Shown one piece after another: positions 1,770 to 64,000 of a stretch of DNA of 64,000 nt. Source of the DNA: an uncultured Eubacteriales bacterium (GTDB taxonomy: Bacteria > Bacillota > Clostridia > Christensenellales > Aristaeellaceae); contig CACYGY010000003.1 of assembly GCA_902774025.1 (NCBI GenBank), positions 17,480 to 81,479 of the forward strand. Direction: 5' to 3'. The notes beneath the pieces are model-generated. The model did not search any database. It was not told the origin of the DNA and saw only the letters and a program-made list of their open reading frames with translations. Numbering within the stretch: the stretch's first letter is position 1; every line of letters starts with the position of its first letter. A program made the translations under genes and the position numbers.

Positions 1770-1783
1770 ATCATACATCATAC
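1770..1783. repeat. Tandem heptamer ATCATAC x2 in the LytTR/GH31 divergent intergenic region
   Basis: Read directly. It lies between a TTGACA hexamer (minus strand) and the LytTR gene. Confidence 0.6.
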
Positions 1784-1853
1784 AGATTGTCAACGCTCCC
1801 CGCGCCATCCGCGGCTGCATGTGCTGAGGAGGAGGCGGTCTATTGTTATTTTG

Positions 1854-1867
1854 TCATGTTTCATGTA
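1854..1867. repeat. Tandem heptamer TCATGTT/TCATGTA, related to the 1770-1783 pair (core TCATRY)
   Basis: Read directly, 84 nt from the first pair and overlapping a possible GH31 promoter (TTGTTA, 17-nt spacer, TACCAT). Confidence 0.55.
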
Positions 1868-1946
1868 CCATCTCCTCAGAAAGACGCTCGGGCGATGCCT
1901 GAGGGGATCTTTCGGGATATCGGACAAACGGGAGGAGAAAAGAAGC

Positions 1947-16906: not shown

Positions 16907-16935
16907 TTGCCAGACACTCATTTTTCCTCTATACT
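16907..16935 (+). promoter_or_regulatory. Promoter upstream of the triplicated-domain protein gene (leaves a leader of about 205 nt)
   Basis: TTGCCA, 17-nt spacer, TATACT. Confidence 0.55.
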
Positions 16936-17148
16936 GTAACGGACAGTTCCCGAAAACCAGACCTGATCGGATCCGGCACGCTCCCCTGTCCCATGGGCGA
17001 GCCCTGTCCGGAAAGATTTTTTGCCTTTCCGGGGAACAGGAGAGAAGGGGAATGCGTCCGATGAAGTGAAGGGACGGCTGACTGAAGTTCGGGAAGGAAC
17101 AGGCTGTGGTGAATGAAAAACGGATTCCGGGAAAAAAGGAGGAGCGTT

Positions 17149-30577: not shown

Positions 30578-31990
30578 TCAGTTCTTGCGGGCAAAGCGGA
30601 AATAGTTTCTGGCATTGTTGTAACTGATATCCGCCACAATCTTTTTCAGGGTTTCCATGTCATCGGGATAGAAGCCCTGTTCCACCCACTCGCCGAAGAG
30701 ACGGCAAAGAATCCGGCGGAAATACTCATGCCGGGGATAGCTCAGGAAGGAACGGCTGTCGGTGAGCATGCCCACAAATCCGGCCAGATAGCCCAGGCTG
30801 GCCAGGGAGCGGAGATGATCCGTCATGCCGTCGAAGTGATCATTGAACCACCAGGCGGAGCCGTGCTGGATCCTGCCTACAGCTTCGCTGTTCTGGAAAC
30901 AGCCCAGGATGGTGTCAATGGCGGCGTTGTCGCAGGTGTTCAGGGAGTAGAGGATGGTCCTGGGCAGCTTGCCCATATCCTCCAGAGCGCCCATGAAGGC
31001 CGCGGTCTGAGTGGAAGGCGCGGTGTTGTCCACGCAGTCAAAGCCGGTGTCCGGGCCCAGGTCCCGGAAGGTAACGGGATTGTTGTTCCGGCGGCAGCCA
31101 TAGTGCAGCTGCATGACCCAGCCCCGGTCATGATATTCCCCGGCCAGGAAGGTCATGCAGGCGAACCTGAACACGGCGGATTCCTGGGGCGTGGGCATGA
31201 CGTTCTCCAGACGGGCCTTGAAAATGCGTTCCACTTCCTCTTCGGGAGCGGGGGCGTACATGACATAGTCCAGGCCGTGATCGGAGAGGCTGCAGTTGTG
31301 GGCGGCAAAGAAATCAAGACGGCGCTTCAGGGCCTCCTTCAGGTCTGAAACGGAAGCGATTTTCATGCCTGCGGCCTTCTCCAGTTCTCTGAGGTAATCC
31401 ACGTAGGAGAGTTTGTCCAGGTCAATGGCTTTGTCCGGACGCCAGGCGGGGAGCACGGTGACGGGGAAGGAACTGTCCGCGGCCAGTTTTTCGTGCCAGA
31501 TGAGGTCGTCCACGGGGTCATCCGTGGTGCAGATGGTGTCCACATGACTCATCTGAATCAGGCCGCGGCTGGTGTAACCGGGACTCCGAAGCTTTTCGTT
31601 GGCCAGCTTCCAGACTTCCGGTGCGGTTTTCGCATTGAGAATGCCGTCATAGCCGAAGAAACGGCGCAGTTCCAGGTGAGACCAGTGATGCAGGGGATTG
31701 CCGATGGAATTCCCCAGCACTTCCGCGTACTTCAGGAACTTTTCCTCATCCGGCGCGTTTCCGGTGATGTACTTCTCCTCCACCCCGGCGCTGCGCATGA
31801 GTCTCCACTTGTAGTGGTCGCCCCCCAGCCAGACCTGGGTGATGTTGTCATAGCGGATATCCATGTAGATTTCCCGGGGGCTGAGGTGACAGTGATAGTC
31901 AATAATGGGGCACTTTTCCGCCACCTCATGATAGAGCTCCCTGGCACATTCCGTGTTCAGCAGGAAATCCTGATCCATAAATGCGCGCAT
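30578..31990 (-). CDS. uxaC: Glucuronate isomerase
   Basis: N-terminus MRAFMDQDFLLNTECARELYH...IIDYHCHL is characteristic of UxaC, with a length of about 470 aa. Confidence 0.95.
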   Translation of the reverse strand: MRAFMDQDFLLNTECARELYHEVAEKCPIIDYHCHLSPREIYMDIRYDNITQVWLGGDHYKWRLMRSAGVEEKYITGNAPDEEKFLKYAEVLGNSIGNPLHHWSHLELRRFFGYDGILNAKTAPEVWKLANEKLRSPGYTSRGLIQMSHVDTICTTDDPVDDLIWHEKLAADSSFPVTVLPAWRPDKAIDLDKLSYVDYLRELEKAAGMKIASVSDLKEALKRRLDFFAAHNCSLSDHGLDYVMYAPAPEEEVERIFKARLENVMPTPQESAVFRFACMTFLAGEYHDRGWVMQLHYGCRRNNNPVTFRDLGPDTGFDCVDNTAPSTQTAAFMGALEDMGKLPRTILYSLNTCDNAAIDTILGCFQNSEAVGRIQHGSAWWFNDHFDGMTDHLRSLASLGYLAGFVGMLTDSRSFLSYPRHEYFRRILCRLFGEWVEQGFYPDDMETLKKIVADISYNNARNYFRFARKN

Positions 31991-38906: not shown

Positions 38907-41129
38907 TCAGGTTCTGTTCTTGTCGGTATGAGAGGAATACTGCCTGTATTCGCTCAGTGTCATGCCGTAGTATTCCCGGAATTTTCCGGCAAAGTACTGA
39001 AGCCGGCTGTAGCCGATGGCCTCACAGATCTCCTCATTGGTCATTTCACCCTCCCGCAGGAGCCTGGCAGCGTGCTCCATGCGTTTTTTCTGCAGACAGT
39101 CCATGAGCTTTTCCCCGGTTTCCTGATGGAACACACGGCTCAGGTGTCCGGTGGAAATGCCCAGGGCATCCGCCACATACTGGGTGGACAGGTCCGCGGG
39201 GGGACACTTGTCAATGACCTGTCTGGCAAGGGTCACCATGCTCCGGTTTCCCGTGTCGCTTTCCTTTTTCAGGTATTCGGCCAGCTTCAGACAGTCGGAT
39301 TTCATCCGGGCCTCAAAGCTCTCAATGTCTTCCAGATGGTAATAGACCTGCATCAGGTCCTGGCCGTAAACGGCCTGGGGACTGGTGTGCACGTCAAAGG
39401 CCGCCTGGACCAGAAAGGCGCCGGTGAGCAGCATGACGGAGCGAACGGTACTCAGATAAGGGATCATGTTTCTCAGTTCCGTGACGATTTCCTCAATCCG
39501 CTGCATGGCCTCCTGGGTTTTTCCCGCCGCCGCCAGGCGGGGCAGGACCGCGAGGTGCACCATGATTCCGGCGATGACCCGGTCTGCGGAGGCATGTTCC
39601 TCTTCCGTGCGGAAAATGCAGACCCGGCGGTTCCGGTCAAAATAGCGTTCGGTCAGGGCTCTGCGGGCACAGCGGTAGGAGACCCCGAGGGGAGCGGTTC
39701 TGTCCACGGGAAGGCCGACACCGAAGGTGAGGGATGAATCGGGGGTGTCCCGGACCACCTCCTCCAGTCTTTCGGGGATCCTTTCCTCATCCTCCTTTTT
39801 CAGGTTCAGCAGGCAGATCCATTCCCGGCGTCTGGACTGGAAGATCTCCACCTGACAGTCCAGGGAGCGGAAGGCGGCGTTCAGGGCCTCCTCCTCTTCC
39901 CGGGCCGGGGCATCGCTGAGCATGAGGCACAGGAGCCGGTCATGGGGAAGCAGGATCCCCAGCTCAGGCAGGGAATGGGTGTAGACCGCCTCATCGCTGA
40001 TGAGGCTGTTCAGATAGGCCTCCCGCAGCTGCAGGCGGCTTTTTTCAATCTCCTGTTCCCGCTCCAGGCGGCTTTCCTCCATGTTTTCCAGCTGATTTTC
40101 CATCATGGAAAAGGTCTGGTCCGGGCTGTACAGGCGGCCCTGGCGGGATTCCGGCAGCTGCATCTGGCGGACCAGGCGCTTCATGGGATAGGCGTAGTGC
40201 TTGGAGTGCACATACAGAACCAGACCGAGGGCGAGGAGCATCACCAGAATGGTGATGAGAATCCACCCCATGAAGGAAGGCTCCAGGGTCAGAGGCATTT
40301 GTGTCCTGACAATGGCGAGCTCCCAGTCCATGATATGGGCGCGCGTACAGGCAGTCATGGCCTTCTGTCCGTCGGGCAGGGTAACCTCCTCTCCCGACAG
40401 AAGAGCCGCCCCCTGATCTGCAAGGTCGGGTGATTCTGAGCACAGAACGGTTCCCTTTCCATCCATGAGCACGAGCGAATCCTGACTCTGCAGGCTCCTC
40501 AGGCAGGAGCGGACGGAGGCCAGGAAGGACTCTTCGCGACAGGAGAGGATCAGGACAGGCTCCTCATCCGGTGTGAACACACCGGGATAACGCCGGAGAT
40601 GGCTGATCCAGCCCTGGACATCCAGGCCTTCGGTTTCTGTCCGCCTGAGCCACAGGGATTCCCCGTAACCCAGCTGTTCCCAGTAGGCGTCCATCCGGTC
40701 CGGCCGGTATTTCTTATCCTCCAGAAAGCGCACGCCCCGGGTGCCCACCAGAAGACGGGAGGCGGGAAAGTACAGGTCCAGCTCCTCCACGGCGGGGAAG
40801 GCAGACTTCACCTCCGTGAGAAGGCTCTTCAGCTTCAGGATCTGTCCGGAGGGGGGCCGGGAAGCTCTGGCCAGGGTGGCGATGGAGGACTCTGAGGCAT
40901 CCCTGGCGGCAATGCGCAGGGGAATCTGCCGGGTCATGGCGTCCACCAGCTGAGAGTCCATGTTGTTCACAAGGGCAGAAAGCTGGGCGGTGAGATGATC
41001 CTGGTTTTCCCGGCGGAGCATATCCTGTCTCAGGGCGTACAGAAGACATCCGAGAAGCAGGGCCACCACCAGAAAGATGGCTGTCACATAAAGGGTGACC
41101 ACATTGATTTTCCGCTCTCTGTTTTTCAA
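38907..41129 (-). CDS. Transmembrane one-component regulator: extracytoplasmic sensor domain, cytoplasmic linker and AraC-type HTH
   Basis: TM helices at about res 11-33 and 295-316 flank a loop of about 260 aa. The C-terminal 100 aa carry the AraC double HTH (ALGISTGHLSRVF...ICEAIGYSRLQYFAGKFREYYGMT). Confidence 0.8.
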   Translation of the reverse strand: MKNRERKINVVTLYVTAIFLVVALLLGCLLYALRQDMLRRENQDHLTAQLSALVNNMDSQLVDAMTRQIPLRIAARDASESSIATLARASRPPSGQILKLKSLLTEVKSAFPAVEELDLYFPASRLLVGTRGVRFLEDKKYRPDRMDAYWEQLGYGESLWLRRTETEGLDVQGWISHLRRYPGVFTPDEEPVLILSCREESFLASVRSCLRSLQSQDSLVLMDGKGTVLCSESPDLADQGAALLSGEEVTLPDGQKAMTACTRAHIMDWELAIVRTQMPLTLEPSFMGWILITILVMLLALGLVLYVHSKHYAYPMKRLVRQMQLPESRQGRLYSPDQTFSMMENQLENMEESRLEREQEIEKSRLQLREAYLNSLISDEAVYTHSLPELGILLPHDRLLCLMLSDAPAREEEEALNAAFRSLDCQVEIFQSRRREWICLLNLKKEDEERIPERLEEVVRDTPDSSLTFGVGLPVDRTAPLGVSYRCARRALTERYFDRNRRVCIFRTEEEHASADRVIAGIMVHLAVLPRLAAAGKTQEAMQRIEEIVTELRNMIPYLSTVRSVMLLTGAFLVQAAFDVHTSPQAVYGQDLMQVYYHLEDIESFEARMKSDCLKLAEYLKKESDTGNRSMVTLARQVIDKCPPADLSTQYVADALGISTGHLSRVFHQETGEKLMDCLQKKRMEHAARLLREGEMTNEEICEAIGYSRLQYFAGKFREYYGMTLSEYRQYSSHTDKNRT

Positions 41130-42266: not shown

Positions 42267-43850
42267 TTATTTGGAGTGATACCACTCGTTGGCTTCTTCG
42301 GTGATGACTTTGCCGCCCATCTGATACCAGGACTCCACAAAGCTGTCGAAGCTGTCCACGGGCATCTCACCGGTGATGATGGCCACGTAGGTGGTCTGAC
42401 GCAGCGTATCCATGCTGGTCCAGTAGTTGGGCATGGAAGCGGTGGTGATGGGAAGCATGGTGTTGGAATAGCCGCCGGTTCTGAACTGGGGCAGGGACTT
42501 GGCCCATTCGTACTGGGCGGGCTTGACCTTCATGGCGAAGAAGGGATTCTGCAGGGTGTTGAACATGTTGGTGTGGGAACCTTCGTCCACCCGCTCATGG
42601 CCTTCCTTGGCCACATAGCCCAGGAGCTCGTCATAGTCGTACTGATCCGACTCCAGATCCCAGTTCCAGATCTTCAGCCAGGTGTCGAAATCGGAACCGA
42701 TGGTGTTGATCATCTCAAGGATCCTCGCCACCTTGGCGGGCTGGTCCTTCAGCTTGTAGCTGAACACCACGGCTTCGTCGGTGGTCAGGCCCCAGCTCTC
42801 GCCGCCCTGCTTTCCGTCAGGACCGGTGGGGTTGAAGCCGATGATCATGTTCTCATAGCCCACGGTGGAGGCAAAGGTGCGCATGGTCCGTCCATACTGG
42901 AAGTTGCCGCCCTCGCCGGTCTCCTCATTCTTGGGTCCGTCGAAGTCAGGCGCCAGGTGATAGTAGGCACCGGAGGAGGAGAAGCCGATCTGGCCGTTTT
43001 CGAAGGGAACGGACAGAGCCCAGTAGCCGCCCTGATTCTCGCCGGTGATGAACTCGGGATCGATCAGGCCGTCCTTGTACCACTTGGCCAGCAGGGCCAG
43101 GGCATCCTTCATGCCGGGATACACGGCGCCGTAAACGAGATTGCCCTCGCCGTCATCCACCCAGCGGTCCGGCAGAGCGCCGAAAGCGCCGAAGATGGGG
43201 TTCATGCCGGTGTTGCTCAGGGCATAGGTGTTCTTGATGCCGTCGCCGTCGGGATCGTCATTGGCGAAGTGATAGAACACTTCCTCACACTCTTCCAGGG
43301 TCATGGGAACCTTGCCGTTGTCATAGCCGAACTTCTTCAGCCAGTCAGCGCGCCAGAAGGGAGCGTAGTTGAAGTAGCCGTCGCCGTTGACGCGGGGCAG
43401 GCCATAGTTCTTGCCGTTGTAGGACACGTTGTCAAAGCAGCCGGGGTCATACTCGATCAGCCAGGCATAGCCTTCGGGCATGCACTGCTTGACGACTTCC
43501 AGGGGCAGTTCCATGACCACGCCCTGCTTGACGAACTTGGAGAACTGGGTGGCATTCTGGAGCATGAACACGTCCGGGATCTCGCCGCCCATGATCCGGG
43601 TGGTGAGGAGTTCGTCATAGTTCTCTCTCTCCAGGAACCACATATCCAGTGTCACATTGAACTTTTCTTCCAGCCACTTCACCACGGTGTCGCCTTCCGC
43701 GATGGGTTCGGTGTCATGACCGGCCAGCCAGGCGATGGTGATCTTTTCCGCGGGATCGGAGACATAGGCGCTCAGATCCACTTCGGCCAGGGCTCCGGCG
43801 ACGGACATGAGCATCACCAGAGCTGTCAGCATTGCCAACCACTTCTTCAT
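42267..43850 (-). CDS. Large extracellular solute-binding protein of a carbohydrate ABC importer (LplA/LipO-like)
   Basis: Signal peptide MKKWLAMLTALVMLMSVAGALA, a length of about 527 aa, position next to two sugar-type permeases, and an AAGGAGG SD. Confidence 0.8.
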   Translation of the reverse strand: MKKWLAMLTALVMLMSVAGALAEVDLSAYVSDPAEKITIAWLAGHDTEPIAEGDTVVKWLEEKFNVTLDMWFLERENYDELLTTRIMGGEIPDVFMLQNATQFSKFVKQGVVMELPLEVVKQCMPEGYAWLIEYDPGCFDNVSYNGKNYGLPRVNGDGYFNYAPFWRADWLKKFGYDNGKVPMTLEECEEVFYHFANDDPDGDGIKNTYALSNTGMNPIFGAFGALPDRWVDDGEGNLVYGAVYPGMKDALALLAKWYKDGLIDPEFITGENQGGYWALSVPFENGQIGFSSSGAYYHLAPDFDGPKNEETGEGGNFQYGRTMRTFASTVGYENMIIGFNPTGPDGKQGGESWGLTTDEAVVFSYKLKDQPAKVARILEMINTIGSDFDTWLKIWNWDLESDQYDYDELLGYVAKEGHERVDEGSHTNMFNTLQNPFFAMKVKPAQYEWAKSLPQFRTGGYSNTMLPITTASMPNYWTSMDTLRQTTYVAIITGEMPVDSFDSFVESWYQMGGKVITEEANEWYHSK

Positions 43851-46071: not shown

Positions 46072-48126
46072 TTATGGTCTGGCTTCCAGGATCATGGAGG
46101 AACGGGGAAAGAGGCGCACCGGACCGTTCTCCGTCAGGCTGTTTCCGTCATGGGATGACAGGACCAGGCGCCAGTGAAATCCGGCGGGCACAACGGGCAG
46201 GGTGAAATCGTGCGTTTCCCAGTGGGCATTCAGGAGGATGTAAAGGAAGGCATCCGATTCGGTTCCGTACTTTTCATGATCCTCTGCCCAGAGAAGGGCC
46301 AGGGTCAGGGTGGGTGTGTTCCAGTCCAGATTCCAGGGCACAGGTCCGTGGAAGGACAGCTCCGGATAGCCGGTTCCATTGGGATCCGTGTCAAAATGGT
46401 CAGCCCGGAGGACGGGATGGGCAGCGCGGAAGGCCAGAAGGGTGCGGAGGCTGTCATACAGGTCCCGGTGCTCCTCCAGTTTTTCCCAGTTCAGCCACGA
46501 GATCGGATTATCCTGACAGTAGGCATTATTGTTGCCCCCCTGACTGCGGGCCATTTCATCCCCGGACAGGAGCATGGGGGTGCCCCGGCTGACAAGCAGA
46601 AGGGTGAGCATATTCTTCATCTGCCGGATGCGGAGGGCGAGAATGTCCTGATCCTCCGTGTCTCCCTCCCATCCGCAGTTCCAGCTGAGGTTCCAGTCCG
46701 TGCCGTCCCGGTTGTCCTCTCCGTTGGCTTCATTGTGCTTCTGGTTGTAGGCGGTGAGGTCGTAGAGGGTGAACCCGTCATGGCAGGTGACGAAATTAAT
46801 GGAGGCGGCGGGACTCCGGCTGCCATACAGGTCGGGGGAGCCGCAGATGCGCCGGATCAGTTCCGGGGAGGCGTCTGCGTCCCCTTTGACAAAGCGGCGG
46901 ACGCAGTCCCGGAACAGACCGTTCCACTCGGACCAGCGGTTCCAGGAGGGGAAGGAACCCACCTGATACAGACCTCCGGCGTCCCAGGCCTCGGCGATGA
47001 GCTTGCACCTGCCCAGCACAGGGTCCAGGGCCAGCGCTTCCAGGATCGGCGGGGACTGCATGGGCTGGCCGGATTCGTCCCGGGTGAGGATGGAGGCCAG
47101 ATCGAAACGGAATCCATCAATATGATAGGCGGTGACCCAGTAACGCAGACAGTCCAGGATCATGCTGCGCACAACGGGATGATTGCAGTTCATGGTGTTG
47201 CCGCAGCCGCTGTAATTCATGTATTCCCCCTGAGGGGTGAGGAGATAATAGGTCCGGTTGTCCACGCCCCTGAAGGAGATGGTGGGTCCCTCCAGGTCCA
47301 TCTCTGCCGTGTGATTGAAGACCACGTCCAGAATGACCTCAATGCCGTTCTGATGCAGGGTCCGGACCATGTGCTTCAGCTCGTCCGCTTCCATGCCCAG
47401 ATGACCGGAGGCGGCGTAGCCGGCCTTGGGGGCAAAAAAGCCCAGCGTGGAATAGCCCCAGTAATTGATGCGCTTCGGGAAGGTTTCCATCTCGTCGAAG
47501 GCAAACACGGGCATCAGCTCCACACAGTTGATCCCCAGTTCCCTGAGGTGGGGAAGCTTTTCCAGCACTCCCGCGAAGGTGCCGGGGTGACGGACCTGAC
47601 TGGAGGGATGGGCGGTGAAGGAGCGGATGTGCATCTCATAGATCACCAGGTCTGTCAGAGGTCGGTCGGGAATCTCCTCACCGTCCCAGTCATAATCCTC
47701 CGGGATGATTCTTCCCCGGTGCTGGAAGGCACAGGCGGGGTTCCGGGGGCTGCGCCATATGTCCCGTCCGGAGACGGAGCGGGCATAGGGATCCAGAAGG
47801 ACGCGTTCAGGATCAAAGAGGAGTCCTTCCTCCGGGCGCCAGGGCCCATTAAAACGGTAGCCGTATTCCACAGACTCCGGGTTCAGGCCGAAGACCAGCA
47901 TGGTATACACGTCCCCGATTCTGAAGCCGGGCAGGAAAGGAATTTCCGCGAAGGGAGCCTCATCCCCCGCGTGGTACAGGACCAGGGTGCACCCCGTGGC
48001 TTCCCTGGAATAGACGCTGAAGTTCACGCCCCCGTCCAGAAGGGATGCGCCAAAGGGAAAGACATGACCGGCCCGGTACTGAAGTGATCCGGCCTGATGG
48101 GTGGGAAAGGTGTCGATTCTCGGCAA
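46072..48126 (-). CDS. glgX: Glycogen debranching enzyme / isoamylase-type GH13 (GlgX-like)
   Basis: GH13 conserved regions DVVFNHT, GFRFDLASIL, EAWDAGG and FVTCHDGFTL, plus an N-terminal CBM48-like segment. The only start with an SD (AAGGAGAAGGAA) is a TTG at 48126. Confidence 0.85.
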   Translation of the reverse strand: MPRIDTFPTHQAGSLQYRAGHVFPFGASLLDGGVNFSVYSREATGCTLVLYHAGDEAPFAEIPFLPGFRIGDVYTMLVFGLNPESVEYGYRFNGPWRPEEGLLFDPERVLLDPYARSVSGRDIWRSPRNPACAFQHRGRIIPEDYDWDGEEIPDRPLTDLVIYEMHIRSFTAHPSSQVRHPGTFAGVLEKLPHLRELGINCVELMPVFAFDEMETFPKRINYWGYSTLGFFAPKAGYAASGHLGMEADELKHMVRTLHQNGIEVILDVVFNHTAEMDLEGPTISFRGVDNRTYYLLTPQGEYMNYSGCGNTMNCNHPVVRSMILDCLRYWVTAYHIDGFRFDLASILTRDESGQPMQSPPILEALALDPVLGRCKLIAEAWDAGGLYQVGSFPSWNRWSEWNGLFRDCVRRFVKGDADASPELIRRICGSPDLYGSRSPAASINFVTCHDGFTLYDLTAYNQKHNEANGEDNRDGTDWNLSWNCGWEGDTEDQDILALRIRQMKNMLTLLLVSRGTPMLLSGDEMARSQGGNNNAYCQDNPISWLNWEKLEEHRDLYDSLRTLLAFRAAHPVLRADHFDTDPNGTGYPELSFHGPVPWNLDWNTPTLTLALLWAEDHEKYGTESDAFLYILLNAHWETHDFTLPVVPAGFHWRLVLSSHDGNSLTENGPVRLFPRSSMILEARP

Positions 48127-53600: not shown

Positions 53601-54227
53601 ATGGAAGCGGTAACCTATGGACTGGCCGGGTTGTTTCTGCTGGCGGTGATTCTGTACTTTTTCAGGGGAGAGAAACTGCAGGCTCCCAGTGTGCCCAGGG
53701 CCGTATACAAGATTATTCCCACCTCCCTGTGTGCGCTTCTGGCTCTGTCCTTTGCCATCCGGGGAAGCGGGAATTACGCGTGGCTGCTTTTTGCGGGCCT
53801 GGTGGTCTGCGCCCTGGCGGACTGGCTGCTGGAGTTCCGCTTTCTGGCGGGCATGGGTGCCTTCGGCTGCGGGCATATTCTCTACTGTCTGGGCTATGCC
53901 CTGGCAGCGCCGGTGACCATGAGAAGCCTGTGGGTTTTCCTGGGCCTGTTCGGAGTGGTTTTCCTGATCTGGCTGCGTCTGCGGTCCAAACTGGATCAGG
54001 CGCCTCTGTTCCTGGTCTATGCCTGTGTGCTCTGCGCCATGGCGTCCCTGGCATCCGGTCTAACGCCCCTTCTCATGGCGGGGGGACTGCTGTTCGTGGT
54101 TTCGGATCTGATGATCGGGATCCGTCTGGCCATGAATATCCGGAACAAAGGATACGGCGTCGCCATTATGGTGACCTATTACGCCGCCCAGTTCCTGATT
54201 GCCTGGAGCGCGGGGCATCTCGTGTGA
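53601..54227 (+). CDS. YhhN-family membrane protein (lysoplasmalogenase-like)
   Basis: About 208 aa and seven to eight helices, with a YhhN-like GLVVCALADWLLE segment. GAAGGAGG SD. Confidence 0.55.
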   Translation: MEAVTYGLAGLFLLAVILYFFRGEKLQAPSVPRAVYKIIPTSLCALLALSFAIRGSGNYAWLLFAGLVVCALADWLLEFRFLAGMGAFGCGHILYCLGYALAAPVTMRSLWVFLGLFGVVFLIWLRLRSKLDQAPLFLVYACVLCAMASLASGLTPLLMAGGLLFVVSDLMIGIRLAMNIRNKGYGVAIMVTYYAAQFLIAWSAGHLV

Positions 54228-54243
54228 GAAAGGAGGGGAAAGC

Positions 54244-55533
54244 ATGGATTTTTATCCCGAAACCTTCGGAGCTCTTGGTGACGGCCGGACGGATGACGGC
54301 CGGGCTCTGCAGGAGGCCATCAATGCCTGCTGCGCCTGTGGCGGCGGCCGGGTCATTCTACGCAGCGGCCGGATTTATCTCAGTCATTCCCTGATGCTCC
54401 GTTCCCGGGTGGAACTGCATCTGGAAAACGGAAGCACTCTTCGGGCCAGCGGCGAGCTTGAGAGCTATTTCCGCCCGGACCAGCCGGAAAGGGATGGAAA
54501 TGCCTCAAAGGTGGGTACACCGGTGACCGGCAAGCCCTCCTATGTCTTCCTCTACGGTCTTGGCTGCCATCACCTGTGCGTCAGCGGTCAGGGCACCATT
54601 GACGGAAACGGATATGCTTTTGTCCGGCGTGTCAGTCCGTATTATGTGACGGGGGATTTTTATCCCAGACCCACGCTGTGCTATCTGGAAAACTGTCAGC
54701 ACGTGACGGTCCGGGACGTGACCATGTGCAGAGTGCCCTTCTGGACACTGCATCTGGGGGGCTGCAGGGACGTGCTTCTGGACAGTCTGCGGATTCTCAA
54801 TCCCCTGGATGTGGCCAACAGTGACGGCATTGATGTGGACCACAGCCAGTATGTCCGGATCCGCTCCTGCCATGTGGAATGCGCGGATGACTGCATATGC
54901 ATGAAGAACACACTGGGGAATCATGAGTATGAGCCCACCTCCCATGTGATCGTGGAGGGCTGTACACTCATCTCCACCAGTGCGGCGCTGAAAATCGGCA
55001 CGGAGGGCGTGGATGACTTTTCCAACATAACCTTTGCCCACTGTATGATTGACAGAAGCAACCGGGGCATATCCATTCAGGTCAGGGACGCCGGTCAGGT
55101 CAGAAATGTGCACTTCCAGGACATCATGATCCACACCCGGCGGTTTGCGGAGAACTGGTGGGGCTGCGGTGAGGCCATTGCCGTTACCGCCTTTGACCGG
55201 GACGGTTCCGTGCCCGGGGGCGGGATTGAGCATATTCTGTTCCGCGATATTGTCTGCGAAGGGGAAAACGGTGTTTTCCTGGCCGGGATGCCCGGGCGGA
55301 TCCGGGACGTACGCATGGAGGGCGTCCGGGTGCGGCTGGAGCGCACAAGCCGCTGGCCCCTGGACCGGTATGACCTGAGGCCGGGGGCGGGTACCGGGAT
55401 CATGGAGCGGAAAACCGTGCCCTTCCTGTCCATGGGGGCGGACGTAAGACTGCTGGATGTGATTCTGGAAGACGAAAACGGCCGGATGTGCCGGCCGGTG
55501 ATGGAAGCGGAGTCTCCGACCCTGAACCTGTAG
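54244..55533 (+). CDS. GH28 polygalacturonase-family hydrolase
   Basis: N-terminal FGALGDGRTDDGRALQEAINAC, catalytic-region NSDGIDVD and ADDCICMK, and RGISIQ. ATG 54244 follows AGGAGGGGA. Confidence 0.8.
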   Translation: MDFYPETFGALGDGRTDDGRALQEAINACCACGGGRVILRSGRIYLSHSLMLRSRVELHLENGSTLRASGELESYFRPDQPERDGNASKVGTPVTGKPSYVFLYGLGCHHLCVSGQGTIDGNGYAFVRRVSPYYVTGDFYPRPTLCYLENCQHVTVRDVTMCRVPFWTLHLGGCRDVLLDSLRILNPLDVANSDGIDVDHSQYVRIRSCHVECADDCICMKNTLGNHEYEPTSHVIVEGCTLISTSAALKIGTEGVDDFSNITFAHCMIDRSNRGISIQVRDAGQVRNVHFQDIMIHTRRFAENWWGCGEAIAVTAFDRDGSVPGGGIEHILFRDIVCEGENGVFLAGMPGRIRDVRMEGVRVRLERTSRWPLDRYDLRPGAGTGIMERKTVPFLSMGADVRLLDVILEDENGRMCRPVMEAESPTLNL

Positions 55534-56415: not shown

Positions 56416-57813
56416 TCAGCATTTGCCCAGAACGGAAGGCCGCCTGACCCGGGCACCGGTGGAGGGGCGGTCTGTTTCCAGTACGATACCCTTCACATCT
56501 CCGGGGAGCAGGACTTCGTCCCCCACATCATAGAGCTCATGGTCTGCCCGGAACCAACCGGTCCTGCCCGTGGAAAGGCGTACCTTCAGACACAGTGTGC
56601 CATGATCCGGAAGGGAGGGTTCCTGAAGGGTGCTGACAGACAGGTAGGGATAGAGACGGCGGAACAGAAGAAAGGCGGCCTCAAAAGCCTGGGGATGGGG
56701 CACTTCTTCCGGGATTCCCTGAAAGTCCAGCCTGTCCCCGTAGACTGAGACGGCATGCATTTCAAAATCCGGACTTTCGGAGAGCGTGTTGGCCGACGGA
56801 GCAATGAGATTGGGAAAAGGCTGCGGCAGGGTGTCCAGAAAATGAGACGCCAGATCTCCCAGGTGCCAGCTGGTTTCCAGGACCGGTTTATGATCCAGCT
56901 GCACCTCCCAGGTCATCAGAGAAGTGGAACGATTCAGAAAAAGCTGCTCATGGCGAACCCGGCCATTTTCCATTTTTCTATTTCTGGCGCATACAAGGCT
57001 GCGGATGGACTGGGAAAAGTCGTCCACACCCCAGAGGGTGGGAACGGACAGATACGTCCGGAGCATGTCGGAGAACTCGCAGCGTTCGCCGGACAGGCCT
57101 GGGCCCGGAACGCCGCACCGTTTCAGCGTCTGCCCCTGCAGATTCTGAAAAGTCAGCGTATAGGAGGCGGGCGTGCTTCCCTCAGGTACTGATTCCTCAT
57201 CCGCGTCGGCAAAAAGCAGAGCGTAGGCCAGAAGCTGAGCCTGCATGAGGGGCTGAATCTGAATGTCGCTGGTACGGGTGTTCCCGTCCCTGAGAATCCG
57301 GGTCAGCTGACACTGCCCTGTGTGATGAATGCTCAGGGTCTGTGTGACGGTATCCGGCTCTCTGACCGCGCTTGCGCTGCCGGGGGCACAGGTTACCGTA
57401 AGGTTCATGGAGGCCAGGCTGGTCAGGGTAAAGGCGGAACAGCTGTCAACGGAAGGCGTGAGCTCACAGATTCTTTCAAGGACCGGAATAAACCAGGCCC
57501 GGGCATCGCCTGTCAGCAGATTCGGTGCCTGAGGTCTGAGGGGGTACAGGGACAGGCAGCGTCCTGTGATGGCCGAGGCAAGAAGACCCGGACGGGTGAT
57601 CTGCGGCAGAACCGGCTTCATGGCCGCGGTGTCCTCCAGGACAGAGGGACCGTAGGCACGGATCAGTGTTTCACCAAAGTCCGGCGGATCGGCATGGCCG
57701 AGAAAAGTCTGAAAAAACAGGTCCTGGACCTGGGAAAGCCGCGTGTTTCTGTCCTGCATCATGCGCAGATAAAACCCGGCGTCCCCGTGAAGCCGGGAAG
57801 GATGAATGGGCAT
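56416..57813 (-). CDS. Hypothetical cytoplasmic protein (465 aa) with no recognisable motif
   Basis: ATG 57813 lies 6 nt after AGGAGG, with its own consensus promoter upstream. The stop is 9 nt before the HAD gene start. Composition is protein-like. Confidence 0.5.
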   Translation of the reverse strand: MPIHPSRLHGDAGFYLRMMQDRNTRLSQVQDLFFQTFLGHADPPDFGETLIRAYGPSVLEDTAAMKPVLPQITRPGLLASAITGRCLSLYPLRPQAPNLLTGDARAWFIPVLERICELTPSVDSCSAFTLTSLASMNLTVTCAPGSASAVREPDTVTQTLSIHHTGQCQLTRILRDGNTRTSDIQIQPLMQAQLLAYALLFADADEESVPEGSTPASYTLTFQNLQGQTLKRCGVPGPGLSGERCEFSDMLRTYLSVPTLWGVDDFSQSIRSLVCARNRKMENGRVRHEQLFLNRSTSLMTWEVQLDHKPVLETSWHLGDLASHFLDTLPQPFPNLIAPSANTLSESPDFEMHAVSVYGDRLDFQGIPEEVPHPQAFEAAFLLFRRLYPYLSVSTLQEPSLPDHGTLCLKVRLSTGRTGWFRADHELYDVGDEVLLPGDVKGIVLETDRPSTGARVRRPSVLGKC

Positions 57814-57960: not shown

Positions 57961-58170
57961 TTAAAGGGCACCAAAGAGCAGCATGGGAATCAGGATGATG
58001 GCGGCCAGAACCAGCAGCAGGGGAGCAAAAGCCAGGAAAGCGCCCAGAACCATGGCCAGATAGTCACCCTTTTCCAGTTCCAGTTTTTCCATGCGCGAAT
58101 AATGGGCATCCAGTTCCTGCGGTGTCTTTTCCGCAGGCAGGCGTTTTTTCCATTTCTCCAGCAGGATCAT
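57961..58170 (-). CDS. Small membrane protein (69 aa) translationally coupled to oppF
   Basis: The ATG overlaps the oppF TGA (ATGA). A charged N-terminal half is followed by a hydrophobic tail of about 35 aa, and the operon terminator follows. Confidence 0.55.
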   Translation of the reverse strand: MILLEKWKKRLPAEKTPQELDAHYSRMEKLELEKGDYLAMVLGAFLAFAPLLLVLAAIILIPMLLFGAL

Positions 58171-59168
58171 ACGTTTTTCTCCATCAGCGGATAGTGACAG
58201 GCCACATAGTGGCCGGGACGGTGTTCATGCCAGACAGGACACTCTTTGGAACACAGCTCCGTGGCATACTTGCAGCGGGTGTGGAACTTGCAGCCGGAGG
58301 GAGGATTCACGGGACTGGGAATATCGCCTTCCAGAACCTGCAGTTCCTTGTTGGATTCCTCCTCAGTGGTGGGGATGGCTTCCAGCAATGCCTTTGTATA
58401 GGGATGCAGAGGCTCCGCGAAGATCATATCCGAACTCGCCAGTTCCACCATGTTTCCCAGATACATGACACCTACGCGGTCCGAAATAAACTTGACGGCA
58501 CTCAGATCGTGGGAGATGAAGAGGTAAGTCAGCTTTTCCTGGGCTTTCAGATCCACAAGGAGATTGATGATCTGAGACTGAATAGACACGTCCAGGGCGG
58601 AGACGGCTTCATCACACACGATGAAACGGGGATTGAGGGCCAGGGCGCGGGCAATGCCGATGCGCTGACGCTGTCCGCCGGAGAACTGGTGGGGATAGCG
58701 ATGGAGCATGTAATTCTGCAGACCGCAGCGGTCCATGATATTCAGGGTATATTCTTCCAGCTCCTTCGAGCCGCGCTTCATGATGCCGTGGGCCACCAGG
58801 GCTTCGGAAATCAGGTTTCCCACCGTCAGACGGGGGTTCAGGGACGAATAGGGATCCTGGAAGACGATCTGCATATCCTTGCGCAGCCTGCGCAGTTCCT
58901 CTCCCTTGAGGTTGTGCAGGTCCCTGCCGTCAAACATGATTCTGCCGGCGGTCTGGCGGTAGAGCTGAAGAATGACACGTCCCAGTGTGGATTTACCGCA
59001 GCCGGACTCGCCCACCAGTCCCAGGGTCTCGCCTTCATAAATATCCAGAGAGATATTGTCGACGGCCTTGACGGAAACCTCATGACGATTGAACAGGTTC
59101 TTTTTCTTGATGGGGAAATACATCTTGACCTGATCCACCTGAATCAGGACCTTCCTGGCTTCAGCCAT
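58167..59168 (-). CDS. oppF: Oligopeptide ABC transporter ATP-binding protein OppF
   Basis: GESGCGKST, LSGGQRQR, FIVCDEAVSALD and a C-terminal oligopeptide-type extension (PSGCKFHTRC). Confidence 0.9.
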   Translation of the reverse strand: MAEARKVLIQVDQVKMYFPIKKKNLFNRHEVSVKAVDNISLDIYEGETLGLVGESGCGKSTLGRVILQLYRQTAGRIMFDGRDLHNLKGEELRRLRKDMQIVFQDPYSSLNPRLTVGNLISEALVAHGIMKRGSKELEEYTLNIMDRCGLQNYMLHRYPHQFSGGQRQRIGIARALALNPRFIVCDEAVSALDVSIQSQIINLLVDLKAQEKLTYLFISHDLSAVKFISDRVGVMYLGNMVELASSDMIFAEPLHPYTKALLEAIPTTEEESNKELQVLEGDIPSPVNPPSGCKFHTRCKYATELCSKECPVWHEHRPGHYVACHYPLMEKNV

Positions 59169-60153
59169 CCGTGCGCACCCCCTTTCTGGGATAGAAGCAG
59201 CGAACCTGCTGGACCTCAGAGACAGAGGTCAGCTCGGGCTCCTCCTGACGGCATTTTTCCGTGGCGTACTTGCAGCGCGGCGCAAACTTGCAGCCCTTGG
59301 GCAGATCCAGAGGATGCGGCACAGCTCCGGGAATCATGTCCAGATGCGTGTCCTGTTTGGTGGACAGAAGAGGAATGGAACGCAGCAAAGCTTCGGTATA
59401 GGGATGGCTGTAGTCTGTGACAGGCTTGAAAATGTAATCCACCGGGGCGATTTCCACCACCTGCCCGCAGTACATAACGGCTACGTTATCCGCCATCTGA
59501 TTGATGACGCCCAGGTCATGGGTGATGAACATGATGGCTGTGTTGTACTGCTGCTTCAGATCGTTCATCAGGCGGAGAATCTGTGCCTGGATGGTCACAT
59601 CCAGGGCCGTGGTGGGCTCATCGGCGATCAGGAGCTTGGGACGACAGGCCAGAGCCATGGCGATCATGACCCGCTGCCGCATGCCACCGGACAGCTGATG
59701 GGGATACTGATTGGCCACCACTTCGGGATTGGGAATCTTCACGGCCGCGAGCATCTCGATGGACTTCTGTTCGGCTTCCTTCTTCTTCATCTTCTGGTGA
59801 AGAATGAAAACCTCGCCAATCTGCCTTTTCACGCTGAAGACCGGGTTCAGACTGGTCATGGGTTCCTGGAAGATCATGGAAATGCTGTTGCCGCGAATCC
59901 GGTACAGCTCTTCACGGGTCAGATGGGTGATTTCCTTTCCATTGAAATGGATTTCACCGCCATAAATCTTCTGGTTGGGTTCAAACAGCTGCAGGACACT
60001 CATGGCGGTCTGGCTCTTTCCGGAACCGGATTCGCCGACCACGCCCAGTGTCTTGCCACTTTCAATGTTCATGGACACACCGTTCACGGCCTTGATCAGT
60101 CCGCGCCGGGTGGAGAAATAGGTGTGCAGGTCTTTGATTTCCAGAATATTCAT
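59161..60153 (-). CDS. oppD: Oligopeptide ABC transporter ATP-binding protein OppD
   Basis: [28 protein letters not shown] and C-terminal [13 protein letters not shown] 60153 (MNILEIKDL) lies 8 nt after AGGAGG. Confidence 0.9.
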
Positions 60154-60172: not shown

Positions 60173-62044
60173 TTAGCGCTCGTTCTCGCGGGGATCAATG
60201 GCCTCGCGCAGGGCGTCCCCGATCAGGTTGGCAGAGAGGGCGGCCAGCACAACGAACAGGCCCGGCAGGAACCAGCGCCACCAGTAGTACTGGATGACCT
60301 GAGACTGCTGCGCGCTGGTGAGCATGTTGCCCCAGCTGGGGGTGGGCTGCGCGACGCCGAAACCCAGGAAGGAAAGACCGGCTTCCGTCAGAAGGGAAGA
60401 GGCGTATCCCAGGGTGATGTTGACGATGACCAGGTTGAAAACGTTGGGGAGAATGTGTTTCCACATAATGTTGCGCTGCTTGATGCCCAAGGCTCTTGCA
60501 GCAAGCACAAAATCCTTTTCACGTTCCACCAGCAGCTGGGCACGCACCAGACGCGCAAGACCCATCCAGGACAGGACGCCCAGAATCACCATGATCATGT
60601 AGAGTCTCTGGGATTCGTTCAGGGAAAGGCCGATGGTATAGGAAAGGGTAACGGCGATGGGATAGAAGGGAATGGCGCTGAAAATATCCGCCAGACGCAT
60701 CAGGGCGTGATCCACCCAGCCGCCGAAATAGCCGGCGGACAGACCGATGATCAGAGCAATGATGGTGGAAATGACCATGGCGATGGCGCCGACGGTGAGG
60801 GAGATACGGCCGCCGTGAATGAGGCGCAGAAGCATATCCCGTCCGTATTCATCCGTGCCGAAGATATATCCGCGGTTGCCCCAGGGGATGATCTTGCCGG
60901 TGCTCTCCTGAATGGCGTAATTCTGATAGTAGTCGGTGCAGACCCGGGTGATTCCCGTCAGGTCCTTGGGCAGGTCCGTCTGATGCAGCGCGTTGCTGCC
61001 CCAGGTATGGACCGTGCCGTCATCCATGACCACCACGAAATGCCGGTAGCCGGCCTCCACATTGACAATATGGCCGTTCAGGCCTTCGGGAACCCGGTTA
61101 AGACCATCCAGGTTGGAGCCCCATACATAGAGATTGCCGTCTTCATCGATGGCGGCGGCATTGCGGTTGGTTGAGGCAACGTCCACCACGCGCACCTCGC
61201 CGGTGGTGAGGACTGCAGGGATGTTGGCATAGTATTCCGTGGACTTGTCGCCGATGACCGCGACGGTGCCGTCATCCAGGCGGAGGACCATGTTGTTGTC
61301 TGCTGTGGCGACCTGAACAATATGATCCTTCAGCTTGCGGCCGATCTTGAAGTTCTGGGTGGACTGAGAAGAACCCCAGATATAAAGATTATGATCGTCG
61401 GTGACCACGGCACTCCACATGGTGGCCGCGTGGATGGCGATGATTCTGGCGCCGCTTTCCGCAATTTCCCGCTTGATGCTGTCGGGCATGATGGTCTGGC
61501 CATGGGCGTAATAGCCCCAGCCATAGAAATTTCCCTGATCGTCCAGGGCGATGACGTGCTTGCCGCCGGTGGCCAGCTGTGTGATATGAGCGGACCTGAC
61601 TTCAGCGGGGATTTCAAACACATAATCGGAAACGGCCTTGAGCTTCTGGTTGGGCTCCACGCCCCATATGGACAGGGAACCGTCCTTTTTAAGGGCGATG
61701 GAGAAGCTGTTGCCGGAGACGATGTCCACCAGATCATCCACCCTGACGTCCTTGTTGACGTTCAGGTAATTCGTCCCCGGGGCCAGGTTGGCATTGGGCA
61801 GTTCCATATAGGTTACATCAATGGGATTCAGGGCGGATCCCAGGAAGGCGAAGAGCAGGAAGGCGATGAACATGATCAGGCCCAGCATGCCCAGCCGGTT
61901 GTGCAGATAATTACGGATGATCGTCTGCAGGGGCGTGCGAAGCGCTTCCTCCTCCAGAACGGACATCTTTTTGTCCTTGCGGAAAAGACGCTTGAACATC
62001 CCGGCGAAGGAGCTTCCCAGGGTCATCTTCTTGTTCTGACTCAT
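60173..62044 (-). CDS. oppC: OppC-type ABC permease with an RCC1-like repeat insertion of about 300 aa in the first extracytoplasmic loop
   Basis: The C-terminal 230 aa are a normal OppC/DppC core (GTDEYGRDML, EAA-like ARALGIKQRNIMWKHILPN). Residues approx. 100-393 form seven tandem WG-ending repeats. AAAGGAG lies 9 nt upstream of ATG 62044. Confidence 0.85.
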   Translation of the reverse strand: MSQNKKMTLGSSFAGMFKRLFRKDKKMSVLEEEALRTPLQTIIRNYLHNRLGMLGLIMFIAFLLFAFLGSALNPIDVTYMELPNANLAPGTNYLNVNKDVRVDDLVDIVSGNSFSIALKKDGSLSIWGVEPNQKLKAVSDYVFEIPAEVRSAHITQLATGGKHVIALDDQGNFYGWGYYAHGQTIMPDSIKREIAESGARIIAIHAATMWSAVVTDDHNLYIWGSSQSTQNFKIGRKLKDHIVQVATADNNMVLRLDDGTVAVIGDKSTEYYANIPAVLTTGEVRVVDVASTNRNAAAIDEDGNLYVWGSNLDGLNRVPEGLNGHIVNVEAGYRHFVVVMDDGTVHTWGSNALHQTDLPKDLTGITRVCTDYYQNYAIQESTGKIIPWGNRGYIFGTDEYGRDMLLRLIHGGRISLTVGAIAMVISTIIALIIGLSAGYFGGWVDHALMRLADIFSAIPFYPIAVTLSYTIGLSLNESQRLYMIMVILGVLSWMGLARLVRAQLLVEREKDFVLAARALGIKQRNIMWKHILPNVFNLVIVNITLGYASSLLTEAGLSFLGFGVAQPTPSWGNMLTSAQQSQVIQYYWWRWFLPGLFVVLAALSANLIGDALREAIDPRENER

Positions 62045-62061: not shown

Positions 62062-63033
62062 TTATTCGAGACGGATTCTCGGATCAATGAGTCCATAGAC
62101 GATATCCGATACAAGCACGGCAATGACGCTCACCAGGGCGAAGAAGGTGTTCATGGTGGAAACCAGCATGGTGTCCCGGGAATTGATAGCATCGATCAGA
62201 ACCTTTCCGATGCCGTTCCAGGCAAAAACGGTTTCCGTGATGGTGGATCCGGCAAAAAGGGAGAAAACGGTCGCCACAACCACGGTGGACACAGGAATCA
62301 GGGCATTGCGGAAGGCGTGGGAATAGATAACCGTCTTTTCCCGCAGGCCCTTGGCCCGGGCGGTGCGGATATAATCCTGGTTCAGGGCATCAATCATGGC
62401 GTTGCGTACGATGCGGATGGAACTGGCCACGGAAATGAGGCTCAGCACCACCACAGGCAGCACCATGTAGCGCAGCCAGTCGGAATAATAGGCCCAGCCG
62501 CTGGTGAGGGCGGCGTTTGGCATGCCGCCGAAGGGAAGCCACCCCAGCTGTGCGGCAAAGATAAACAGAAGACACAGGGCAATGAAAAAGCTGGGCATGG
62601 ACCAGGTGATGAGAGAGAACACCTGCCAGAAATTATCATACAGTTTTCCCCGTTTGACGGCACATCGTATGCCCACGGGGACGGCGATGCCCAGCTGCAG
62701 AAGAATCACGCCGATGTTCAGAATGACCGTGTTACGGATGGGCTCAGCCACCACATCCGCAACGGGACGGTTGTTCTTGCTGGACCAGCCGAATTCTCCC
62801 TGAAGCATGTTGGTCACCCAACGGAAATACTGCTCAGGAAGGGACTTGTCCAGCCCCAGCTTCTGATACATGGCATTATACGCGTTCTCATACTGGTCTG
62901 CCTTCAGAGACGTGGGAAGCATGGCGCGCACGGGATCTCCGGGCATCATTTTGTTGATGGTGAACAGAATGATGGTGATGGCGATCAAGACGGGGATCAG
63001 GATTAAGATACGTTTGATGATGTATTTGATCAT
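62062..63033 (-). CDS. oppB: Oligopeptide ABC transporter permease OppB
   Basis: Starts MIKYIIKRILILIPVL, as is typical for OppB/DppB, with the EAA loop YIRTARAKGLREKTV. ATG 63033 lies 8 nt after AAAGGA. Confidence 0.9.
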   Translation of the reverse strand: MIKYIIKRILILIPVLIAITIILFTINKMMPGDPVRAMLPTSLKADQYENAYNAMYQKLGLDKSLPEQYFRWVTNMLQGEFGWSSKNNRPVADVVAEPIRNTVILNIGVILLQLGIAVPVGIRCAVKRGKLYDNFWQVFSLITWSMPSFFIALCLLFIFAAQLGWLPFGGMPNAALTSGWAYYSDWLRYMVLPVVVLSLISVASSIRIVRNAMIDALNQDYIRTARAKGLREKTVIYSHAFRNALIPVSTVVVATVFSLFAGSTITETVFAWNGIGKVLIDAINSRDTMLVSTMNTFFALVSVIAVLVSDIVYGLIDPRIRLE

Positions 63034-63201: not shown

Positions 63202-64000
63202 TCAGTAGGTTGTGATTTCCTTGGCAGCCTCACTGTCAGCCACCTTGTAGATGTTGCAGATCTCATAGGGCCATTCATGGAAAGGACTGGTGTTCAGGCC
63301 CTTCACGGCATAGTCAAAGACCTCAAAGTATTCGTTGGAATACAGCGGGATCTGGGGCAGGATCTGCTGCCAGCGGACCTGGAAGGCCAGCCAGTTCTCC
63401 AGGAAGGTGTCTTCATCACCGGGTTCGGTGCTGCGCAGCTTCATGATCAGCTCGTCCAGCTCAGGATCGTTGACCTGGCAGGCATTCTGCCAAGTGCCGT
63501 AGAAATCAGAGTGCCAGCTGTCATAGGGATCGTTGGGGTTGCCGAAGGTGTTGCCCATGTTGAAGGTGCTGTACAGCTTCTCGTCATCGGACAGTTCGTA
63601 GCTGTAGTAGTAGTTGTCCAGCAGGGCGTTGAAGTCGGACTTGGTCACGGTGAAGTTCAGACCGGCCAGAGGAGCATTGGCGGCATAGCTGATCTCGATG
63701 GAGTCAGTGGTGTCCAGGCCGGCAGTACCCATATGACGGACAGTCAGCATTTCACCCTTGTCGTTGTAGCGCATGTAGCTGCCGTCGGCCTTGGCCTTGG
63801 AGGCGTCGAAGGGGGTCTTTCCGTCCGCTTCATACTTCCATTCGGTCTGGTCCAGCAGTTCGTTGGCCTTTTCCACGTTCAGGGAGAAGGGAGTCAGCAG
63901 CTCTTCCAGCTCGTCGCCCACTTCCTGGTAGGCCCATTCAGCATAACCGTACAGACCATGCACGATTCCGCCGTAGCCGCCCAGGCAGTAGTTCAGAACT
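63202..64000 (-). CDS. oppA: Oligopeptide-binding protein OppA (family-5 SBP), C-terminal part; the gene continues beyond the window
   Basis: The frame is open to base 64000. Its position at the head of oppBCDF and its Trp/Tyr-rich C-terminal lobe are typical of family-5 SBPs. Confidence 0.75.
   Translation of the reverse strand, partial: VLNYCLGGYGGIVHGLYGYAEWAYQEVGDELEELLTPFSLNVEKANELLDQTEWKYEADGKTPFDASKAKADGSYMRYNDKGEMLTVRHMGTAGLDTTDSIEISYAANAPLAGLNFTVTKSDFNALLDNYYYSYELSDDEKLYSTFNMGNTFGNPNDPYDSWHSDFYGTWQNACQVNDPELDELIMKLRSTEPGDEDTFLENWLAFQVRWQQILPQIPLYSNEYFEVFDYAVKGLNTSPFHEWPYEICNIYKVADSEAAKEITTY

Follow-up and report, generated by a model that had tools for sequence, protein, structure and literature searches.

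An OppC-type ABC importer permease with a predicted seven-bladed RCC1/BLIP-II-like β-propeller in uncultured Clostridia

The DNA analyzed here (referred to as the window) is a stretch of 64,000 nucleotides from an uncultured Eubacteriales bacterium of the order Christensenellales (assembly GCA_902774025.1, contig CACYGY010000003.1, positions 17,480 to 81,479 of the forward strand). We found that its oppC-position gene (60173..62044, minus strand, stop codon included) encodes a 623-amino-acid (aa) permease of an Opp/Dpp-type ATP-binding cassette (ABC) importer that carries a large insert between its first transmembrane (TM) helix and its membrane core. Profile matches and a structural model indicate that the insert is a complete, compact seven-bladed β-propeller of the RCC1_2/BLIP-II type. 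In the usual view, type I ABC importers make contact with their surroundings almost entirely via their substrate-binding proteins (SBPs), and the clade described here adds a full propeller on OppC.

Domain layout and predicted fold of the permease

The reading frame comprises 623 codons with no internal stops, and its GC content stays between 0.55 and 0.59 along the whole gene, with no compositional break. Pfam identified an OppC_N domain (PF12911; residues 37 to 89, 34.3 bits against a cutoff of 23.9) and a BPD_transp_1 domain (PF00528; residues 431 to 619, 108.6 bits) in this open reading frame (ORF), in agreement with a preliminary description of the DNA in which the permease at the oppC position was held to be about twice the usual length. 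In phmmer searches of the PDB, the membrane core matched DppC (8z1v_B, 5.4e-47) as well as OppC (8z21_B) and Mycobacterium tuberculosis OppC (8j5q_C), with query residues 389 to 619 aligning with residues 75 to 297 of the solved chains; core identity to solved OppC/DppC chains was 33 to 40%. Foldseek likewise matched the membrane part to DppC and OppC of Escherichia coli and to OppC of M. tuberculosis (template modeling score, 0.72). The core contains an EAA-type coupling motif (E507...AARALG520...HILP533), in which E507...A516..G520...P533 are invariant alignment columns. The NCBIfam models of the OppC/DppC/NikC type matched the C-terminal core alone (approximately residues 390 to 620), and none of the named equivalogs (Opp1C to Opp4C, DppC, OppC, NikC, GsiD, and others) was reached, the best being Opp4C with 303.9 bits against a cutoff of 350. 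The protein is a true member of the Opp/Dpp family, the permease of a type I ABC importer that depends on a binding protein.

Residues 1 to 72 (61829..62044, minus strand) make up the cytoplasmic N terminus and TM1 (approximately residues 51 to 72), as judged from hydropathy, charge count, the OppC_N match, and a helix at residues 50 to 72 of the structural model. A linker recognizable from both conservation and the model (N-L-x-P-G-x-N-Y-L; residues 73 to 103, 61736..61828, minus strand) then leads from TM1 to blade 1; its P89 is invariant, distant relatives included. The propeller, predicted to be extracytoplasmic, spans residues 104 to 391 (60872..61735, minus strand). It is followed at residues 392 to 623 (60176..60871, minus strand) by the GTDxxGRD motif, with the conserved segment IFGTDEYGRDML at residues 394 to 405, and then by the OppC/DppC membrane core with TM2 to TM6, delimited by the phmmer and Foldseek matches and the invariant columns. 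Because query residue 389 aligns with DppC residue 75, the propeller replaces the short link just before GTDxxGRD; it is anchored within a few residues of that motif, near the membrane. Pfam, hydropathy, and the DppC alignment all agree with the earlier placement of the insert (60869-61747, corresponding to residues 100 to 392) between TM1 and the GTDxxGRD segment.

The prediction of a propeller draws on Pfam, a single-blade hidden Markov model (HMM), AlphaFold2, Foldseek, and phmmer. Seven hydrophobic-x-[WI]G turns are spaced 40 to 49 aa apart, with the W or I at residues 127, 176, 223, 264, 308, 348, and 388, and all the turns quoted in the preliminary description, which had proposed seven tandem units, are present. 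The RCC1_2 model of Pfam (PF13540) matched the region in four stretches (E value, 1.4e-29; 101.5 bits against a cutoff of 22). The whole-domain model PF25390 (RCC1-like domain) reached 121.2 bits, under its gathering score of 150 though with an E value of 8e-35; that model rests on longer, eukaryote-type blades. A single-blade HMM derived from the family itself found exactly seven blades, at residues 104 to 130, 153 to 179, 200 to 226, 241 to 267, 285 to 311, 325 to 351, and 364 to 391. When searched against the PDB with phmmer, the propeller matched BLIP-II (1.8e-17) and, further down, UVR8, HERC2, and RCC1.

An AlphaFold2 run on an alignment of 66 sequences gave a model with a mean predicted local distance difference test (pLDDT) score of 84.5 and a predicted template modeling (pTM) score of 0.76. 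Residues 91 to 400 scored 88 to 95, and the block means of the linker (residues 73 to 103) were 79 to 94. Secondary structure assignment of the model with DSSP yielded seven strand triplets, three strands to a blade. BLIP-II was also the top Foldseek match in the PDB (E value, 1.5e-18; template modeling score, 0.75; root mean square deviation, 2.4 Å over approximately 250 columns; 26% identity), followed by UVR8, RCC1, HERC2, and RPGR. The RCC1-type propeller suggested in the preliminary description is thus supported in kind by the RCC1_2, PDB, and Foldseek matches, with the refinement that its blades are of the compact three-stranded BLIP-II type and not the classical RCC1 repeat of 50 to 60 aa. 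The nearest propeller relatives outside permeases are multi-RCC1 proteins of 1400 to 7000 aa that also carry Ig-like, Big, PKD, fn3, cadherin-like, and InlB-B-repeat domains. No further RCC1 proteins were found in the window.

We infer that the propeller faces the outside of the cell, as had been predicted earlier, because its flanks are homologous to solved DppC/OppC, the regions between TM1 and TM2 are periplasmic in DppBCDF (PMC12136057), the permease shows a positive-inside bias (11 K/R versus 4 D/E in its first 50 residues), and the relatives of the propeller are of extracellular type.

Distribution and evolution of the insert

The identical 623-aa protein is present on contigs of independent samples. 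A word-indexed search returned 897 homologues at an E value of ≤1e-10, and the best 120 clusters among them share 51 to 100% identity with the query and are 606 to 635 aa long, except for a 411-aa fragment (P0063). The same Pfam combination occurs in 120/120 of these best clusters, and those that are named are called just "ABC transporter permease subunit"; the clade as a whole comprises hundreds of protein clusters. A pattern scan of GTDB species representatives combined with an insert-only alignment revealed relatives with this architecture in at least 91 GTDB species; like the cluster counts, this species count is a lower bound. All 80 retained representatives are metagenome-assembled genomes (MAGs), with titles naming Oscillospiraceae, Christensenellales, Lachnospiraceae, Eubacteriales, or Clostridia, plus a few implausible ones, and no cultured isolates were found among the carriers, every genome being an uncultured MAG. 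Some loci with the same operon (L022, L025, L040, L041, L046 to L048, L063 to L065, L068, and L071) come from MAGs titled "uncultured Bacteroides sp." or "Treponemataceae"; as the operon is of the Clostridia type, either the bins were probably mislabeled or the contigs misbinned. The isolate codes of the MAGs indicate rabbit, Hadza human gut, and a digester as habitats, and several codes presumably belong to termite gut MAG series. The clade marks a conserved and unstudied uptake system of uncultured gut Clostridia (termite, rabbit, and human gut) and digesters. In open-access papers and bioRxiv, we found no report of RCC1 in an OppC, an ABC permease, or a BPD_transp_1 protein; a broader search led to a paper that, judging by title and abstract, deals with an unrelated Chryseobacterium genome. 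The architecture is stored in databases under a generic name and, as far as checked, is undescribed and uncharacterized.

The wider clade was delineated by an exhaustive HMMER search of a library of representatives at 50% identity, in which 51 permease-type proteins appeared among the best 150 matches. Across these 51, the identity of the TM core to that of the window protein ranges from 73% down to 40%, and the propeller is kept in the 40% relatives. The loop from TM1 to the core measures 281 to 359 residues in most of the clade, which equals one propeller. Among the enlarged forms, located at L090, L092, L093, and L088, P0139 (575-residue loop) has RCC1 repeats throughout and probably contains two propellers. 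In P0150 (554 residues), P0151 (453 residues), P0141 (767 residues), and P0133 (839 residues), blades at both ends enclose non-RCC1 sequence consisting of coiled coil or "LEWKYD"-type repeats, and these nested inserts have no match in Pfam. Short loops were found in P0164 (215 residues), P0165 (115 residues), and P0255 (42 residues). In a neighbor-joining tree of the OppC cores, which lacks support values and includes few outgroups without an insert, the short forms are nested within the propeller-bearing clade and the enlarged forms have at least three independent origins. A few relatives appear to have lost the propeller, and the insertion site has been remodeled repeatedly within the clade.

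A few members of the clade look irregular. In P0194 (531 aa), a radical-SAM domain is joined to a remnant of two blades and to an OppC core; this protein is probably a chimera of gene calling or assembly. The cores of P0165 (two blades) and P0245 (no blades) are nearly identical, which suggests a truncated call or a recent deletion. On the contig of L091, a second OppB/OppC pair without a propeller (L091:14001-15842) lies 5 kb downstream of the propeller operon, so that the propeller variant and an ordinary Opp system coexist there.

Within the family sharing at least 51% identity, the residues conserved in the insert include those of the fold, i.e., the WG and DG turns, as well as invariant polar and aromatic residues in the turns between strands 1 and 2 (S113, W210, N251, R294, N295, Y333, Q374, and Y376); blade-specific conservation in these turns extends to F114, S115, and F336. 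Mean pairwise distances were highest for the propeller (0.83) and the SBP (0.74), the two fastest-evolving parts, and lower for OppB (0.46) and the OppC core (0.34). The sequences thus show the insert to be an old feature of a diversified clade, with a fold under purifying selection and a fast-evolving surface.

The operon and its genomic surroundings

A tblastn search of the window proteins on 80 related loci showed that the gene order SBP5-OppB-OppC(propeller)-OppD-OppF-small TM protein is invariant wherever the contig allows. The operon is also kept in double-length, giant-insert, 32%-identity, and insert-less relatives. The oppB-type partner permease (62062..63033, minus strand; 323 aa) has BPD_transp_1_N and BPD_transp_1 domains, is syntenic in 76/80 loci, and scores 301 bits, below the cutoff, with the NCBIfam model Opp4B. 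Beside it lies the C-terminal part of a family 5 SBP (63202..64000, minus strand; SBP_bac_5; found at 73/80 loci) that runs off the window. The full gene, at L001:6984-8843, encodes 619 aa, with an N terminus that resembles the signal peptide of a lipoprotein. In the PDB, the SBP is closest to an OppA (9p48_A, 4.9e-31), and its score with NCBIfam Opp4A is 90.8 against a cutoff of 650. A substrate could not be assigned by homology: the permeases and the SBP fall under every NCBIfam equivalog cutoff, the nearest models being of the Staphylococcus aureus Opp4 type, and the OppA relative is unspecific.

Downstream of oppC are the genes for an oppD-type ATPase (59161..60153, minus strand; 330 aa) and an oppF-type ATPase (58167..59168, minus strand; 333 aa), each with an oligo_HPY region and a cysteine quartet. 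The quartet lies in the C-terminal region of both ATPases, and its spacing (C-x5-C-x6-C-x17-C in OppD) agrees with the [4Fe-4S] sites of E. coli DppD and DppF (PMC12136057). Many relatives carry an OppF insertion of approximately 125 to 345 aa that the window OppF lacks. Insertion-bearing forms (L004:10893-12347, L006:10877-12328, L088:10620-12167, L091:9826-11202, and L092:11208-13238) are 458 to 676 aa long versus 333 aa here. The insertion follows shortly after Walker A, varies in length (in L092 it is approximately 340 aa, K/E rich, and coiled-coil-like), and occurs independently of the OppC insert. In mirror-tree comparisons of 67 related loci (L008 to L087), the OppD and OppF distances correlate with each other at 0.80 and with those of the SBP, OppB, the OppC core, and the propeller at 0.05 to 0.43; two ATPase subtypes, recombination, or a few cross-assigned hits are possible reasons for these odd ATPase distances.

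The sixth gene of the unit (57961..58170, minus strand), whose start overlaps the oppF stop, encodes a 69-aa protein with a charged N terminus, an ELEKGD-like motif, and one C-terminal TM helix. Homologues of 61 to 89 aa, often overlapping oppF, are present at 71/80 loci (e.g., L004:12337-12546, L006:12349-12618, L089:12205-12423, L092:13150-13410 [uncalled], and L094:3946-4146). Neither Pfam nor NCBIfam contains a match to this protein. As the gene adjoins not only a giant-insert relative (L092) but also an insert-less one (L094), the small protein is a trait of the transporter clade and not of the propeller, and it may be an accessory subunit. The neighbors OppA, OppB, OppD, and OppF were called ordinary in the preliminary description, but the surroundings of the permease are not wholly so, given the conserved single-TM protein and the large OppF insertion of the relatives.

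Just downstream of the operon is a gene for a 465-aa protein (56416-57813, minus strand) with no match in Pfam or NCBIfam; at L088, its place is taken by another unannotated protein of 601 aa. The 465-aa protein, the GH28 enzyme, and the HAD hydrolase of the window were found at 0/80 related loci, and the flanks differ between lineages. We therefore dropped the flanking genes, which lack co-conservation, as a hint to the substrate. The rest of the window, with genes at 1719-3944 (plus strand), 30578-31990 (minus strand), 46072-48126 (minus strand), 54199-55533 (plus strand), and 38907-41129 (minus strand), encodes GH31, the glucuronate isomerase UxaC, GH13 with CBM48, GH28, and an AraC-type regulator with a GGDEF-like domain, a gene content that points to a saccharolytic anaerobe. 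The ORFs at 16918-19089 (723 aa) and 42267-43850 (527 aa), both on the minus strand, have no match in Pfam.

Possible roles of the propeller and comparison with known systems

We tentatively favor, by analogy with known systems, the idea that the propeller serves as a platform for protein binding and keeps the lipoprotein SBP at the translocator. It would lie against the outside of the membrane, next to where the SBP docks, at a site that is pseudosymmetric to the scoop region of OppB/DppB and, in our reading, equivalent to that of the P2 domain of MalF. By holding or prepositioning the cognate SBP, it could improve the hand-over of substrate to the OppBC pore in a Gram-positive envelope. BLIP-II is secreted and binds proteins with picomolar affinity by way of its apical turns and interblade loops, and the permease propeller might bind in the same fashion through its apical face, i.e., through the strand 1-2 turns and interblade loops. 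This idea would be in keeping with the invariant residues of the strand 1-2 turns in the family of at least 51% identity and with the propeller and the SBP being the parts that evolve fastest. ATP-driven transport itself would be expected to follow the ordinary DppABCDF/OppABCD cycle. If the propeller does dock the SBP, recruitment of an SBP by a domain of the permease would have a second, independent example, in Gram-positives.

Several observations weigh against SBP docking. A comparison of 29 divergent single-propeller representatives revealed no clade-wide binding site, with the fold residues and P89 alone persisting. Specific coevolution of the propeller and the SBP was unsupported by the mirror-tree, a weak method at this sample of 67 loci, in which their partial correlation was 0.04 and the highest value for the propeller, 0.56, was that with OppB. 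SBP length bears no relation to insert size: an SBP of 630 aa accompanies a 767-aa loop, and one of 725 aa accompanies a 575-aa loop. The nested coiled-coil and repeat domains of the enlarged variants resemble outward-reaching adhesin modules. Finally, an insert-less relative nested in the clade retains the remaining operon, and the propeller is therefore dispensable for assembly of the transporter.

Some of these observations would be met by a lectin- or adhesin-like module that captures a polymer, the cell wall, or a host or dietary surface, a role that we consider the main rival, possible though somewhat unlikely. Such a module would bring the importer to the source of its substrate or raise the local concentration of ligand around the SBP, leaving the SBP itself untouched. 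It would fit the giant surface-type multi-RCC1 proteins as closest relatives outside permeases, a surface that varies by lineage while clade-wide conservation is confined to fold residues, the independent enlargement of the inserts by extra blades and nested domains (up to approximately 840 aa in total), the lack of a covariation signal with the SBP, and the saccharolytic gut or digester anaerobes that are its hosts. However, in the 80 loci the six-gene unit is not accompanied by any further co-conserved gene, be it for a carbohydrate-active enzyme, a peptidase, or another protein, no known sugar-binding signature was identified, and the tether close to the membrane would limit the reach of the module. 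An unlikely role, in our estimate, is that of an autonomous extracellular receptor for a partner other than the SBP (a polymeric or surface-bound substrate, an envelope component, or a secreted protein) that would be coupled spatially or allosterically to import. The enlargements of the insert would then amount to lineage-specific retuning of the receptor, and the clade would represent a class of type I importers in which the permease carries a second recognition module beside the SBP. Binding of anything other than the SBP would in any case extend ABC import by a new layer of recognition.

It is rather improbable that the propeller acts on OppB or the translocator as a structural, gating, or regulatory element, whether as a collar, lid, or allosteric element that controls access to the outward-facing cavity or its sealing, or through oligomerization or signaling. 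The partial correlation with OppB would be in keeping with such a role, as would the pTM score and the confident linker and junction, which point to an orientation that is fixed with respect to the membrane domain, and in Dpp it is functionally important that the TM1-TM2 scoop of the partner subunit seals the outward cavity (PMC12136057). Yet the mirror-tree carries little weight with 67 related sequences, 290 residues are many for a lid, and a surface that evolves faster than any other part would be unusual for intramolecular packing. That the insert is an artefact or a passenger, i.e., a permease-RCC1 fusion made by assembly or gene calling or a decaying insertion, is very improbable, even though a few relatives look truncated or chimeric (P0194, and P0165 and P0245 with two and no blades). 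The ORF is unbroken and uniform in composition, its frame and protein sequence are identical in independent assemblies, and hundreds of full-length homologues conserve both the length and the blade register. The propeller match is significant, the fold is predicted with confidence, and its residues are kept over deep divergence. We ruled out an assembly or gene-call fusion on the basis of the identical copies in independent samples and the large, full-length, syntenic family.

The solved structure closest to the propeller is BLIP-II of Streptomyces exfoliatus (1jtd and 3qi0), which likewise has seven three-stranded blades of approximately 40 aa each. Whereas BLIP-II is a free, secreted inhibitor of class A β-lactamases, the permease propeller is an internal domain of a six-TM protein; nothing ties it to β-lactamases, and the protein lies outside the BLIP-II inhibitor family. 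It may be regarded as a natural instance in which a membrane protein displays a compact binding scaffold of the BLIP-II type. With the giant multi-RCC1_2 surface-type proteins, it has in common the RCC1_2 repeat type (28 to 37% identity) and the same metagenomic protein space, but those proteins are multidomain and, unlike the permease, are neither membrane embedded nor part of a transporter.

Other importers offer parallels to a platform that would recruit the SBP. The MalF P2 loop lies between TM3 and TM4, which we take to be after the first helix of the conserved six-helix core and thus at the same position as the propeller. The P2 domain is Ig-like, binds MalE throughout the transport cycle with a Kd of 7 to 22 µM, and counts in the literature as the sole exception among type I importers (PMC6906923). 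The statement in the preliminary description that no characterized importer carries a propeller is in line with our literature search, but MalF P2 sets a precedent, with another fold, for a folded domain on the permease. P2 and, by prediction, the propeller are folded domains outside the cytoplasm, each carried by the permease of a type I importer in the loop that follows TM1 of the core; P2 is approximately 185 aa long and belongs to another permease family, whereas the propeller comprises approximately 290 aa and resides in an OppC. Not sharing the P2 fold, the propeller would be at most a functional analogue of MalF P2. The region between TM1 and TM2 of DppB forms a scoop motif that enters the cleft of DppA and seals the outward cavity (PMC12136057). 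This scoop occupies the same loop position in the pseudosymmetric subunit, but it is a flexible element of approximately 30 residues with two short helices in OppB/DppB, in contrast to the folded domain of approximately 290 residues in OppC.

The system otherwise resembles canonical Opp/Dpp importers (DppBCDF, 8z1v; OppBCDF, 8z21; and M. tuberculosis OppABCD, 8j5q): its permease has OppC_N with TM1, the GTDxxGRD segment, the six-TM core, and the EAA motif, and its operon supplies OppB, two oligo_HPY ATPases with cysteine quartets, and a family 5 SBP. It differs from them in the small extra TM protein of the operon, in NCBIfam scores that stay under every equivalog threshold, and in the permease itself, as canonical OppC/DppC proteins are approximately 290 to 300 aa long and have a short link at the site occupied here by a 300-residue propeller.

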